A stretch of DNA of 64,000 nt from Alphaproteobacteria bacterium. Lineage in GTDB: Bacteria; Pseudomonadota; Alphaproteobacteria; RF32; CAG-239. Made by a program: the position numbers. The stretch is taken from the NCBI GenBank assembly GCA_015062435.1, contig SUUR01000005.1, positions 5,563 to 69,562 of the forward strand, given 5' to 3'. Numbering within the stretch: position 1 is the stretch's first letter; the number at the start of each line of letters is the position of its first letter. Positions 24,001 to 36,000 of this stretch are shown here, piece after piece.

Positions 24001-27000
24001 ATTATTGAGTTAGTTAAACGCTCTGTATTTACAGCCTCACTTTTAACATAAAAAACATAGCGGTTTCCTGAGCGACCAAAAACAATTACGTTAGTATCAA
24101 CACCAACATTAGCTCCTTTACGAGGGTATAGCATTAAAGAATTAGGACTTGAAATCTGCCCATCAAATGTGGCATTATCCCCGATAAAAATATCTTCTAT
24201 CATCTCCCATTCAGGGAAATTGACCAAAGTAATCATTCCCTCACGCACACGAATCGGCAACACTAAGTCCGGAGACCAATAATAACGAGAATACGCCGGT
24301 TTGCTTTGTCCTTCTCCTAAGTTTTGCATAGGATCAAGCCAAGCTTCTTGTGTCATCCCCAAAGAATTGAACCCCATATACCCCATATTCATAGGAGTGT
24401 AATTACCTTGTGCCTGATCTGCACTGGCATCCATCATTTGATGATCAACTTGCGCAAAAGCTACTGAAGAAAGAATCAATCCCCCCAGCAGCGTCAGATA
24501 AAATTTTGAATATTTTACAAATAACACCTGATTACTCCACCTTATTAAAGGTCAATGAATATTTATCAACAGTAAAACCTACGGGGTTTTTAAGTCGATC
24601 TCCAAACTTAACACTTTTGCGACGATAACGGACATTCATCGCTGCAGTCCAATAATTCACTTCAGGACGAACAGATTCCGGATACATATCTCTGGTTTCA
24701 TACTCAACCTGCCAAATTCCGTTTGCCAGCTCATTTACGGACAGAATTTTCACCTCTCGAGACAATCCCCTACTACGAATAATCTCCAAAGCTTTTTTGG
24801 CTGTATTTCTGACAAAGTCATCATAAATACGAGGAGAGGACATCTCCTTTATTTGCCCTTCAGGCCCCCAACGAGATTCCATTTCTTGTAAGTCACGACT
24901 AAAAGAACTACGAAGCAAAACATATTCTCTGACAAAAACCTCTGTTATCGCCTTTTGACTACGCAGACCTCCCATTATTGGCTGAATATGATACACCTGC
25001 TCCGATCGATCTTGAAATGTCAGCAAAAACGGTTCAACCCTGTAAAGCGGCATAACCTGAAAAATCGCAAGTATCAAAACTATATTACAACAGATACTTA
25101 ATGCCGTAATAATAGCAAAAGCTCTGGCAGTCCAGAGATAACGTTTCTCCCCTGCATTTGCAACAAACAAATCAGAGCTTTGCTGATAAGGAGCTTTACC
25201 GCCTCTGCCCTCCAACAACTTTTGCTTATTTGTACCGCTTATTTGCTCTGCCATCTACATGCTCACAATTAAATTATTGCAACAAACCAATCCGGTAAAT
25301 TTTTGGGTAATTCAACCTCCATACAAGCGCATGGAGAAAGTTTAAGCTCATTACTACCCCTACCGATACCAACCGGCTCAGGCTCATAATAACTGCCAAA
25401 ACAACCTGACAACATGAACAAACCAAACAAAACAAATACTTTAGCTATATTATTCATCTAAAAATCCTTACTTCAACTAACAAATACTTGTATAGATATT
25501 ATGAACTTATACTCTTTTAGTTTAAATGTCTAACAGCTTAACTATACTTATCAACAAATTAGAATATTTCCACTTCAGCCTGAGAATATCTGACAACGGT
25601 AAAACCTAACGGGTTTAATAATCTGCGAGCCATAAACATTCTTTCTTTAATAAAATATGCGGTTATAGAAGCAGTCCAATAGCGTTCCTTTAATTCTGAT
25701 TTTTTGACTTCATTACTGTGATCTGTAACCAACTCATAAGTTTTAAAATCTATTTTCCATATTGAACTGTTGTCTCCACCTTGTCGTTTAAGACTTATAA
25801 TCTCAACCTCTTTTGAAACCGGATCTTGAAACATTGATTGCCAATTAGCGGCAATTCTTTTATAAAATGGTTCAAAAACTTCAAACGCTGATAAATAATG
25901 AACTATTCCGCCTGGAAACCAACGAGAACGCATTTCTATTGGATCATTAATAAATGTGTTTCGTAAAATTACATATTGACGAATAAAGGTTTCCATTAAT
26001 TGAGTTCTTGATGACATATCAGGTATTATCGGTTCTTCACGTACAATCTTTTGAGAACTGTCTTGATTGATTATCAGAAAAGGCTCTACCGTTACCATCG
26101 GAGCAAGCCTAAACAGCGCTAACGATAAACAGATCAACAACAACATAGATAAAACAGATGTCATGATGTAAAAACGAGAAAGCCACATATAATATTTATG
26201 TTTAAAGCCTTCTGTTTCCTTGTCCAATTCTTCCAGAAACTCCGGTGTTTCTATGGAATTGGCGGTAATGGCTTTGTGCTGAACTCCTTGTTCTATTTGT
26301 TTGTTTATCATTGTTTTCCCTATATTAATAGTTTGAACAGTAAGGTGCATCTACAACATCTGATGAAGCATCTTCCCATGCCTTTTCATGAGTGTCAGCA
26401 GCAGCTTTATTGGCTTTAGCTGACTTAATTTTAGCATCAAGCTCAGCTTCGGTTGTTATCTCGTCTCCAATATTTACCATTTCATCACTATCTTGTTGAA
26501 GTCTGGCAATTATGTTTTTAAGAGTATCAACTCGCTCGGCAACAACAGGATTGTCCTCTGTTTTGATATTTTGTTGCAACGATTTGGCCTCATCTATAAG
26601 AGCATTTTTTATCTCATCTATACTACTTCTTACTTCATTGTATACTGCATCATCTGCAAGATTTATATCTTCCGCAGGTTCATATCCGAAATTTCTTAAG
26701 AAAGTTAAAAGTTCTGCCTGCTTTTCTTTATAATCATTTTCAGTTTCTTCCAATTGCTCTCTGGTCATCTTTTCGTTTTCTTTATATACCAGATAATTTC
26801 CTATTTGATTACGTGCAAATGGTGCGTTCTCCACCGAAGCTAAATCTTTTTTATGATTTTTACTGTCATCCATTTGTTTATCCTCTTTCCAAAGAGTATA
26901 AAAGGCATCATAAACATTATCTTTGAACATTAGCTGGTTATCACTGTTGATGGTCAGAAATATACCGAGTTCACTATATTTACAATTTGTGTCTGCCGTA

Positions 27001-33000: not shown

Positions 33001-36000
33001 GTGAAGTTGCGAAACATATAATTTTGATAATTGATAATGGTCTTAAGTGCTAATTTAGTACTATAAATTTTGAGCAATGTATTCATTTGCAGATCTATTC
33101 CTTTTGCCAACTCTATAATATTAGCATAAGTATCCGTTTTATTTGTATCCGGAGCATATTGAACCGGTTCCACAAAATTTTTTTCAAAACCTTCTGCATC
33201 ATTTACCAATTTTATGGAATCTGCCACCATTACAGATGCAAAAGAAACCATCGTATCTCTCATAACTTTAGGAGCATCATAGGGGTTAAGTGATTGCTCT
33301 TTTCGACGTTCTTCATTAAGTCTTACAAGACATTCATTTACAGCATCTTCTTTTAATGCATCTTTGGAACTTAAATTGTCACAAAACATAGACAATTGCT
33401 TGGGAATGATAAATGTTCCGTTTACATCTGTTCCACCATCGGGTAGCGATAGGGCCATAGCAAATGCCATGTTATCCTGATGTTTGATTGTTGAGGCATA
33501 CATCTTACTTTCCGCTATATCATTGTAGGTATATTGGTCAAGAACATCCAATCCCTGATCAAATTTACCTTTAATCTTCTCAGCCTTCTCTACCCCTTCT
33601 TCTATTTTTGCCTTATATTCGGCGTACATTTGAGCGTATTCTTCTGCTCTTGCCCGATATTCATTTACTTTTTTTATGATTGCTTCAGCTTTTTCTTTGT
33701 TTTTGATAATGTACTCTTGCACGGTTGCAGCAGCTGTACCGATTGCTGCCGCAGTTTTTTGAACAGTAATCATCGCATTAATTACTGTTTGAGATTGTTG
33801 AATTTGAGTAAACCATTGCTTGATGGTTTTGATAAGGCTCCAATTATCTATTGCTGGTATTTGTGCATGAGAAACAGTCGGAAGCTGAACACAAAAAAAT
33901 GCCACTAAGATAGCTCTAAGAACTATGTTTTTAATCTCTTTTTTCATATTATCCTCCAAACCGCTTCTAATAATTCAGTATATCATGTTTATGTATCAGC
34001 TCCAAGCAAATAGTCACAAATTTCTAAATATTTAAATATTTTGTAACAAAGTTCTCTTCGCCATATTCTTTAATCAGTTCCTCAACCAATAATACATTTT
34101 TACGACCAGAGTTATATAAGCGCAAGTAGGGTCCCAATCCGCTTAAATCTACGTCTAAAATAACAGATTCACCTGTTGCCGGCCGAGATAATAAAATTGC
34201 ATAAGGAAAATCTCGATAACTCTTACCAAAAATAAAGTCTGTTTCTGCATTGGTAAGATTCCAGTTCTCATAGTCTTCTATGGTTGCTTGCGGATTTCGG
34301 AAGAAAATAACCGTTTGGCATTGTCCTCTGATAACTTCTCCCACGCCTAACCTATCTATAATGTTTGGTTGTTGGAACGCACATAAATATGCCTGACGTT
34401 TTTTACGCCCTTCTTGTAAACCGATAACAAAATAATCTCTAAACATCGGGTGTTTGAGCATGGGGGCGGTCTCATCTATCATAATCAGAGAAGGAACACC
34501 GGTTTCTCCGGTTTCAGATTGAATACGATGCATAATATAGCTAATTACGGCAGGAGCTAATGTTTCATCTTCAAATATATGAGTAAAGTCAAAAGCCATA
34601 AATCTTTTGGATTTAAGATCAAGACTATCTGTATCACCATTAAAAATGTTGCCATACTGATCAGGATTAATCCATTTAAACAATTCTCTACGCATGTTGC
34701 CTGTTGGTGAAAAACAACTCTTATAAAGATTAGTCATCAAACGCTCACTTGGGCGTAAATAATCAAATGCGGTGGTTACCGCTCTGGCAATTTCTTTTTC
34801 TGAAACGGCATCATCTACTAATGTTATGGCTCGCATCCATCGACGTAAAAATGCACGATTATTAGCATTATTTTCACAGTCAAACGGATTCAATGATACG
34901 TTCTTTTCATCACCTTCAAAGCCTACATAAGCTCCTCCGATTGCTCGAGTAAATATCTCGGCACCACGGTGTCTATCAAAGAAAAATACTTTAAGATCAT
35001 GGTGGCGCATTGCCTGACCGGCAAGAAACGTCAATAAGGTGGTTTTACCTTGTCCGGTAGGACCGATGATACAACAGTGAGCAACAGCAGAATCCTCGCC
35101 GGAAACATGAAACTGGAATCGATATGCCGAACCGGAGGCCGTACGAAAAACCGTAATCGCTCCTTTTCCCCAATCACTTTTACCAAATCCTTCTGACGGT
35201 TTATCAAAACAAATGGCTGCAGCAACTACTCTTGATAAGTAACGATACGTTCTGGGTAAAGCCTCATATGTCGGGAATTGGTTAAAAAATGTTGCCTGTG
35301 TAACCCACCCCTCTCTAACAGGAGTAACACCAAACAAGCGACAAATTCGTTGGACTTCACTTTCTCCAAAATCTATCTCCTCTTTAGTCTCTCCTTGTAA
35401 TATTATGGCCATTGCATATTCAGTAAGAGCCTGATGGTTAGCATCGCTATCTTCTATTGCTCCCAAAACTTCACTATATTGATTAATCACATCACCGGAG
35501 AAACTGGTCATCATCGCCATACGTTGTTGTTGCATCAGTAATGCTCGTGCTTGCGGTTTAAAAATCGGACGAACATTGTGCAATAAAACCAATTCGCTAT
35601 CTATTGAAAGAAGTGATGTGACCATGCTCTCATCCATATAGTCTCCCGAAGAACGAATCCCCATAGCTGCGGCATATTTTTCTTTATCTCCACTAAAGAA
35701 ACGAATAAGTCCGTTTTCTCCGGTAAAGTGGATATGATCAGCTGTAAGCAACTCATTAAGATGATAACCCTCTGCCCCATTGATTTTCGGTTGAGGTCGG
35801 GTTATCGGACTGCAAATCTTTGCATACACAGAGAGCGGTCCGTCTTCTGCCGGACTTCCCTCTGCTTCATAAAGGGCGGATATTCCATAGTCATTCAATG
35901 TTGCAATGAGGGATTGAGATGCATAATTCAAATCCTTCAAATTATCATCTCTATCAATTACGGAAAGCACAATATAGTGGGTGTTGCTATAAATACGGTT

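Follow-up and report, generated by a model that had tools for sequence, protein, structure and literature searches.

VirB5 of type IV secretion systems (T4SSs) is an exported protein that sits as a pentamer atop the VirB6 pentamer, nucleates the polymerisation of VirB2 and is found at the pilus tip, where it takes part in contact (PMC9259494, PMC12857230). The fold of TraC is a three-helix bundle with a globular appendage (PMC2653234). We analysed a 64,000-nucleotide stretch (the window) of contig SUUR01000005.1 from an Alphaproteobacteria bacterium (assembly GCA_015062435.1), in which the slot between virB4 and virB8 of a T4SS operon holds five consecutive genes for exported proteins, here called P1-P5. 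The reading that we favour, with a probability of roughly 0.45, is that P1-P5 are Sec-exported, mostly α-helical T4SS subunits that have taken over and elaborated the role of VirB5. Like VirB5, TraC (pKM101) and TrwJ (R388), they are helical and have a Sec signal peptide, the P1 gene comes right after virB4, the N-terminus of P1 is of the hydrophobic-P/V-x-x-D type, P5 starts with a domain of ~210 amino acids (aa), and there is a weak common match to the Pfam family DUF4141. Unlike them, they take up five genes rather than one. The length of P1, P4 and P5 is 2-6 times greater, two Cys modules are present in P1 and a ~1000-aa extension in P5, and no significant sequence, profile or fold match connects the two sets.

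The Trw system of Bartonella possesses multiple recognisable copies of VirB5 (trwJ) and VirB2 (trwL) that vary in sequence; it lacks VirD4 and has been interpreted as a variable adhesion organelle (PMC12857230). Our locus resembles it in having several variable exported proteins encoded after virB4, several VirB2 genes (two plus a VirB2 fusion) and no VirD4 nearby, and in apparently belonging to the chromosome of a host-associated alphaproteobacterium. In Bartonella, trwJ is reportedly amplified together with trwI (VirB6) and trwH (VirB7), whereas here VirB6 and VirB7 are not co-amplified and the slot proteins are not detectably VirB5 and form unrelated groups. In Helicobacter pylori, the exported helical proteins CagL, CagI and CagH of a T4SS that interacts with the host form an uninterrupted series, and one of them is considered equivalent to VirB5 although sequence similarity is absent. 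CagL has been called the VirB5 homologue of the Cag island, and TrwJ has been superposed on it (PMC9259494). In contrast to CagL/CagI/CagH, P1-P5 have no visible common C-terminal motif, and both their sizes and the number of genes are different.

Among 72,556 plasmids, the closest VirB4 (38.6% identity) is that of the Microvirga sp. VF16 megaplasmid pMVF16-3. The backbone gene order of its T4SS is identical to that of the window, and its 58-aa lipoprotein matches the window VirB7. The Microvirga slot contains a 273-aa VirB5-like protein with the N-terminus QVPVLD and a weak PF07996 match (E = 0.17), as well as a 428-aa exported helical protein whose CPIIDP motif resembles CPMPD of P5. Unlike in the window, the slot also holds a small membrane protein and this VirB7-like lipoprotein; overall it is simpler than that of the window, and the Microvirga T4SS looks conjugative (MobA/MobL relaxase, coupling protein). 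No significant similarity was found between the Microvirga slot proteins and P1-P5.

In the window, P1-P5 correspond to five consecutive open reading frames (ORFs) at 26325-33959 on the minus strand. Their ATG starts are preceded by a Shine-Dalgarno sequence, GGAGG or GGAG, 5-10 nucleotides (nt) upstream; with these ribosome-binding-site-supported starts the block spans 26325-33947 and encodes proteins of 488, 171, 182, 419 and 1266 aa, the same lengths that a sequence-only reading of this DNA had given. The tight coupling that it described also agrees with our re-measurement: the spacing is 76 nt between virB4 and P1, 13 nt between P1 and P2, 17 nt between P2 and P3 and 1 nt between P3 and P4, while P4 and P5 overlap by a TGATG at 30125 (-1 nt). 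P1-P5 are translationally coupled and form a single operon block, and scanning this block for terminators revealed no convincing one inside.

Each of the five proteins begins with a K/R-containing n-region, a hydrophobic core of 10-13 residues and small residues at -3/-1. Signal peptides were judged by our own heuristic for the n-, h- and c-regions together with the -3/-1 rule, which predicts a cleavable Sec signal peptide in all of P1-P5, as the sequence-only reading had expected; the same heuristic is passed by 151 of the 154 slot ORFs of the window and 36 related loci (see below). Beyond the signal peptide P1-P5 have no further hydrophobic 19-mer, and none of them has a canonical lipobox. 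Their combined content of E, K, Q and L is 27-37%, compared with 19-28% in VirB4, VirB8a, VirB9 and VirB11, and P1 and P5 are mostly helix in the AlphaFold secondary structure. To this extent the description of all five as E/K/Q/L-rich helical or coiled-coil proteins stands, but the coiled-coil label is too broad. Heptad-like coiled coil is clearly over shuffled controls in P2 (69%), P5 (16%) and P1 (12%) only, coverage in P4 (8%) is within one standard deviation of the shuffles, and P3 has none. Moreover, about aa 860-1110 of P5 form a conserved region that contains Cys, is not helical and has many charged and aromatic residues that are invariant. The Cys pairs noticed earlier do exist and are conserved: P1 has C193/C210 and C355/C371, and several Cys residues of P5 are invariant.

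Conservation of the slot was assessed with a VirB4 scan of a genome collection, which yielded 37 loci with VirB4 identities of 52-94%; locus L033 (52%) has a different arrangement and was left out, so that 36 loci were kept. Of the 37, nearly all are labelled in their records as uncultured Alphaproteobacteria or proteobacteria, and rumen, caecum or gut metagenomes are the source of many. The gene set is conserved in these related T4SS loci: wherever the slot was captured, VirB4 is followed by 4-6 signal-peptide ORFs and then by VirB8, and the last slot ORF is always a giant of about 1200-1600 aa. Sequence divergence is considerable. In the closest relative, VirB4 is 94% identical and P1-P5 are 57, 42, 43, 45 and 51% identical, respectively; at 90% VirB4 identity the values for P1-P5 are 30-40%, and below ~80% P5 alone is still detected by tblastn. 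For four closer locus pairs, the ratio of non-synonymous to synonymous substitution rates (dN/dS) is 0.06-0.24 in slot genes versus 0.014-0.027 in VirB4, and slot genes change 5-10 times faster than VirB4 at non-synonymous sites. Given intact ORFs in relatives and a dN/dS far below 1, P1-P5 are real genes under purifying selection, and pseudogenisation in relatives, which would have spoken against the sequence-only reading, is ruled out. Fast evolution and variable gene number are what is expected of surface-exposed, contact-mediating parts.

Family relationships were derived by all-against-all phmmer with clustering, hhalign with reversed-alignment controls and hidden Markov model searches. 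They indicate that the slot proteins comprise at least two sequence groups and a separate Cys module, P4 being weakly linked to the others. In P1, cleavage is predicted after SHA, so that the mature N-terminus, QIPAID, starts the N-terminal module; a heptad stretch covers aa 75-135 of the ORF, and two copies of a ~150-aa Cys module, Fx, occupy aa 174-316 (independent E-value 9.8e-12) and aa 336-488 (8.1e-23). In eight other loci the Fx module is a separate gene of ~200 aa. P2, with a signal peptide and the mature N-terminus STDWIVNIVD, is a paralogue of P1 (38% identity, E = 1e-9), and its C-terminal DKYTYN represents a D-x-YTYN motif common to both. P3 has a signal peptide, the mature N-terminus LDIPSYIKDPQD and no heptad pattern, and has relatives among the stand-alone slot proteins of ~230 aa in other loci (family F3b; hhalign F3-F3b 92% versus 0.1% for the reversed control). 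P4 combines a signal peptide and the mature N-terminus FFLKFDIAK with an acidic Ser/Asp/Gly-rich C-terminus, and its hhalign links to P2 (30%) and P1 (9%) are weak, though in register from the mature N-terminus. P5 consists of a signal peptide, an N-terminal ~210-aa domain (P5N) with the CPMPD motif, long helices, the non-helical Cys region described above and a helical C-terminus with the final residues PYCSNY. The first ~210 aa of P5 are homologous to the full length of stand-alone ~230-aa proteins (phmmer E-values of 1e-20 to 1e-23); the link between F3b and P5N (34% by hhalign) mainly rests on phmmer. Among slot families, hhalign with reversed controls confirmed only P1-P2 and P3-F3b. Fusion, fission and turnover of slot genes are frequent.

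How do these proteins compare with VirB5? The place of P1 right after virB4 is the virB5 position in the Agrobacterium, IncN and Shinella operons. Our reference set consisted of seven proteins encoded at the VirB5 position in T4SS operons of plasmids, six of the VirB5 type and one TrbJ. Their mature N-termini are QFVVSD (A. tumefaciens), GIIVSN (IncN), GIPVID (Shinella), QLVVND, GIPVAVD and QVPVLD (Microvirga), TrbJ being without the motif. Those of the P1 family include, next to that of P1 itself, VPVTD, IPSID and LPTFD in orthologues. P1 lies in the VirB5 position and its mature N-terminus matches the reference VirB5 proteins, which supports this part of the sequence-only reading. Across 36 P1 orthologues with an average identity of 16%, D34 reaches a conservation of 90% or more, and 36 residues further on G70 is unchanged throughout. 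A distant P5 relative has the N-terminus GMPVID, and the first slot protein of the same contig has FVFPVID. More generally, an Asp occurs within the first 12 mature residues in 120 of 151 slot proteins, against 55% expected by composition.

A weak independent link between P1 and VirB5 is suggested by DUF4141. It is the sole Pfam match at E ≤ 1 for the annotated A. tumefaciens VirB5 (E = 0.0016), also matches an IncN-type VirB5 (E = 3.3e-5) and matches P1 orthologues over 38-49 of 53 positions (E = 2.6e-4, 0.0039 and 0.014); with seven members, it ties for the commonest family among 150 slot N-termini. All of these matches fall under the gathering cut-off. In length, P2, P3 and the stand-alone relatives of P5N fit the ~220-240-aa single VirB5 domain, P5N and its relatives having a VirB5-like size of ~210-230 aa, while P1, P4 and P5 are larger and multi-module. 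In its best alignment to a slot protein, a profile of the seven VirB5-position proteins covers positions 2-155 of a stand-alone P5N relative, with only 16.6 bits; the profile includes Microvirga Mv_273, itself weakly matched by PF07996.

Other results weigh against VirB5 ancestry. None of the formal homology tests gave a significant link. PF07996 matched neither P1-P5 nor the first 300 aa of 36 P1 orthologues at E ≤ 1, matched none of 45 P5-domain relatives at E ≤ 0.01, and was not among the 25 families listed at E ≤ 0.1 for 150 slot N-termini. As a control, four of the seven reference proteins match PF07996 at 1e-27 to 1e-61; however, neither the annotated A. tumefaciens VirB5 nor a TrbJ is matched, and therefore the silence of this model on P1-P5 is not decisive. 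Aligned with hhalign, the P1 family and the VirB5 set gave a probability of 1.5%. Profile searches with the P5 N-domain, the P1 N-module and the whole P5 family against the PDB sequence set, which should include the published TraC, TrwJ and CagL entries, returned no T4SS protein, TraC, TrwJ or CagL at E ≤ 10. The AlphaFold model of mature P1, built on a shallow alignment, has a predicted local distance difference test (pLDDT) score of 36. For P5 residues 29-1228 the pLDDT is 57.7, and neither the N-domain nor the globular region is well modelled; the N-domain is predicted as helices at 17-61, 111-158 and 175-212 plus a small insert, at a pLDDT of 30-73. Foldseek comparison of these low-confidence P1 and P5 models with the PDB retrieved SMC, MukB and Rad50 coiled coils only, none at E < 0.05, and returned no VirB5, TraC or CagL. 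The CagL chain was likewise not returned for slot proteins by the PDB sequence or profile searches. In addition, the N-terminal motif of the slot proteins is degenerate and only a few residues long. Searching for homologues with nothing but the P1 N-terminus gave no match, and a profile of 20 P1 orthologues recovered only eight proteins. The homology to VirB5, TraC or CagL envisaged by the sequence-only reading is therefore not demonstrable by PF07996, PDB profiles, hhalign or Foldseek. Finally, hhalign found no link between the P1/P2 and P3/P5N groups. The idea of one radiated family agrees with the P1-P2 paralogy and with the P3-P5N relationship, but given two unlinkable groups, a separate Cys module and the weak links of P4, it holds only in part.

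The alternative that P1-P5 have a function outside T4SSs did not gain ground either, as Pfam, NCBIfam and PDB sequence searches with P1-P5 produced only coiled-coil noise and pointed to no non-T4SS function. The earlier picture of uncharacterised exported proteins inside a T4SS operon, free of clear homology to other functions, is thus sustained. Several VirB2-type genes, the lack of VirD4 nearby and a fast-evolving exported helical block with VirB5-type N-termini together argue for elaborated VirB5 substitutes. We infer VirB5 ancestry, a stalk or tip location, docking on VirB6 and an adhesin function for P1-P5, and the corresponding mechanism might be as follows. Cleavage of the signal peptide would leave a conserved Asp-containing N-terminus exposed on each protein. 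P1-P5 would then use VirB6 as a docking platform, nucleate a VirB2 pilus or stalk and finish at its tip, where their variable coiled-coil, Cys-module and globular parts would touch target cells. P5 could be the large payload-bearing member, its ~1000-residue extension being the main candidate for target-cell contact. As to origins, P1 may be the positional descendant of VirB5 fused to two Cys modules and P2 its paralogue, and P3 and the P5 N-domain may derive from a second ~210-aa module.

Part of the same evidence might be explained in other ways. P1-P5 could be lineage-specific periplasmic or surface structural additions without VirB5 ancestry, akin to the Cag- or Dot/Icm-specific components, and serve as a stalk, sheath or scaffold built together with the giant VirB10 and the repeat protein encoded next to it. 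The machine is indeed enlarged elsewhere (a 1511-aa VirB10, a 1338-aa protein, a 526-aa VirB9 and a 771-aa VirB2 fusion), VirB5 homology is not detectable, and the tight operon coupling and cross-species conservation would suit such additions. However, known outer-membrane-complex extras are mostly lipoproteins or beta-rich, whereas no lipobox is present in P1-P5 and the predicted structure of P1 and P5 is mainly helical. A core scaffold would also be expected to evolve slowly, yet P1-P5 evolve at several times the rate of VirB4 and vary in number, and the VirB5 function would stay unfilled. We consider this explanation rather unlikely. Another candidate role comes from pertussis toxin, the subunits of which enter the periplasm first and then leave by Ptl. 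If P1-P5, or at least P5, were such Sec-dependent, two-step, coupling-protein-independent substrates, this would fit five signal-peptide proteins with conserved Cys pairs and possible disulfides, their fast evolution, and the result that the scanned window ORFs included neither VirD4 nor a relaxase; the conserved non-helical region of P5 could then be an effector or binding domain. On the other hand, VirD4 may lie outside the window, no toxin or enzyme domain was found in Pfam, NCBIfam or PDB, and the conserved mature N-termini resemble a machine component. The genes are, moreover, embedded between virB4 and virB8 and not placed ahead of the machinery genes, and a substrate role seems improbable to us.

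The Rickettsiales rvh systems offer a further comparison, as they have five VirB6 paralogues after virB4, at the same position following virB3-virB4 and in the same number as P1-P5. The gene order in rvh is virB8-virB7-virB8, with virB7 between two virB8 copies. Here, too, virB8 occurs in two copies, as does the duplicated virB8 of rvh (PMC2653234). RvhB6 is hydrophobic and polytopic (PMC2653234), but P1-P5 have no membrane segments, and genuine VirB6 homologues are present elsewhere in the window. Because P1-P5 lack both membrane segments and a TrbL domain (no PF04610 match, no hydrophobic segment beyond the signal peptide), their identification with VirB6 paralogues is refuted, and we see next to no chance that they are the rvh VirB6 counterpart. 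P1-P5 were also rejected as VirB7 candidates; they lack a lipobox, and a lipoprotein with the lipobox LSGC is encoded elsewhere (Table 1). Within the preferred reading of P1-P5 as elaborated VirB5 substitutes, a bolder version can be imagined, in which a hetero-oligomeric stalk or tip has taken the place of the homopentameric VirB5 tip and is made of distinct subunits alike only in their docking N-terminus, P5 being a "VirB5-head plus ~1000-aa payload" that acts as a contact adhesin or tip-displayed effector. This version is speculative and, in our estimate, doubtful.

The P5 N-domain belongs to a broad family. Its profile, in an exhaustive search of 1.84 billion representatives, found 145 clusters at 50% identity with E ≤ 1e-3, 98 of them with E ≤ 1e-10. 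Most represent proteins of 1250-1850 aa with the domain in N-terminal position; a smaller share is ~200-450 aa long. In ten clusters that were looked up, every named member is a "hypothetical protein" of an alphaproteobacterial metagenome-assembled genome. None of 45 sampled members matches a function-indicating Pfam family; the strong matches seen in single members (MgsA_C, AraC helix-turn-helix, glutamate dehydrogenase) are perhaps due to gene-call fusions. No solved structure is related by sequence to this domain. A tblastn search with P5 against the 72,556 plasmids of PLSDB gave no match. A stand-alone P5N-like protein had a sole plasmid match, at E = 0.5, in pGOX1 of Gluconobacter oxydans. 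The matched gene (locus L047, 5953-7128) encodes a hypothetical protein of 391 aa that is exported; it lies two genes upstream of DotA/TraY within a conjugation locus of the MPF_I type. Its mature N-terminus, FFDSAAIVG, resembles those of slot proteins, which is suggestive but not evidence. Proteins of the T4SS stalk or tip may generally share a hydrophobic-x-x-D N-terminus.

P1-P5 are part of a long minus-strand T4SS operon (Table 1). The sequence-only reading had placed P1-P5 where virB5, virB6 and virB7 would canonically lie. It was right that no VirB5 is recognisable, but VirB6 (3677-7299) and a VirB7 lipoprotein are present. At least two VirB6 genes are displaced ~6 kb beyond virB11. The 62-aa lipoprotein has the motif P-x-GIGR-x-x-N-x-LK-x-SPCAC, as does the 58-aa lipoprotein of the Microvirga T4SS locus, and this motif together with the lipobox identifies it as the VirB7 equivalent. 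Since VirB6 and VirB7 are located elsewhere in the locus, only VirB5 is without a recognisable homologue: VirB2-4 and VirB6-11 are all present, and none of the window ORFs that were scanned encodes a PF07996 protein.

Table 1. Genes of the T4SS locus in the window, in the order of the minus strand.
Feature	Coordinates	Strand	Remarks
VirB2 pilin	39981-40388	-	
VirB2 pilin, second	39465-39872	-	
771-aa protein with VirB2-like hairpin	36958-39273	-	
VirB3	36443-36733	-	
VirB4	34024-36453	-	PF03135, E 2e-15; upstream neighbour of P1
P1	32481-33947	-	488 aa; follows virB4 directly
P2	31952-32467	-	171 aa
P3	31386-31934	-	182 aa
P4	30125-31384	-	419 aa
P5	26325-30125	-	1266 aa
VirB8, first copy	25559-26350	-	PF04335, E 1.4e-14; downstream neighbour of P5
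VirB7-like 62-aa lipoprotein	25269-25457	-	lipobox LSGC; between virB8 copies
VirB8, second copy	24532-25254	-	PF04335, E 1.4e-20
VirB9	22947-24527	-	526 aa
1338-aa protein	18921-22937	-	beta-flower/YD repeats
VirB10	14383-18918	-	1511 aa; same repeats
VirB11	13405-14373	-	
TrbL/VirB6	5008-7299	-	763 aa; PF04610, E 3e-9
TrbL/VirB6	3677-5011	-	444 aa; PF04610, E 3.3e-5; 24.2 bits, just under the 25.9-bit cut-off

The 771-aa protein is a sixth exported coiled-coil protein of the operon. It starts with a signal peptide and continues with a heptad-rich E/K stretch of ~450 aa that contains several Cys. A membrane hairpin of the VirB2 type (aa 491-540), closely similar to both VirB2 pilins in sequence, and a C-terminal extension of 230 aa complete the protein, which looks like a giant pilin fusion. 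Among relatives it is very variable, with 30-40% identity or with the hairpin alone conserved. Directly after the first VirB2 gene, at 39939-39972 on the minus strand, there is a strong 14-bp hairpin with eight G-C pairs, which may be an attenuator setting a high ratio of pilin to machinery transcripts. Farther along the operon, VirB10 has about eight beta-flower repeats before its TrbI domain, and the preceding 1338-aa protein is membrane-anchored with about ten repeats of the beta-flower/YD type. Such a repeat expansion of the channel protein VirB10 is reminiscent of CagY. Between virB11 and the virB6 block, the plus strand (7561-13393) encodes a 323-aa double HTH_3 regulator and four ORFs without a Pfam match (712, 208, 415 and 226 aa), of which the 415-aa one has a lipoprotein-like N-terminus, LGISSC. 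The two TrbL/VirB6 genes are followed by a 945-aa M23 peptidase, possibly a cell-wall hydrolase of the system or a toxin, and beyond the VirB6/M23 block a membrane-rich ORF runs off the edge at the window start. Divergent from the T4SS, a type IVb pilus operon (40654-51437, plus strand) encodes a TcpQ-like protein, a secretin, PilO, a T2SSE ATPase, a T2SSF platform protein and two bundlin/PilS-type pilins, a gene content which we take to recall the R64 thin-pilus, BFP and TCP systems. The housekeeping genes after it (gpsA and an M20 peptidase) make the locus appear chromosomal.

Our literature search on the T4SSs of these uncultured Alphaproteobacteria of animal gut and rumen found no study. 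The P5 N-domain represents an unannotated family of considerable breadth. Our results further reveal that VirB5-type proteins can evade current profile models, as even the annotated A. tumefaciens VirB5 is missed by PF07996, and such misses bear on claims of T4SSs that "lack VirB5". A hetero-oligomeric tip, if real, would be a new architectural class of T4SS tip, present in abundant gut and rumen commensals. Overall, P1-P5 are a real, conserved and uncharacterised set, most likely an expanded and highly diverged VirB5-position module. If they are elaborated VirB5 descendants, they would be the prime candidates for the machine's contact or adhesin end, and their rapid divergence would mark host or partner specificity.

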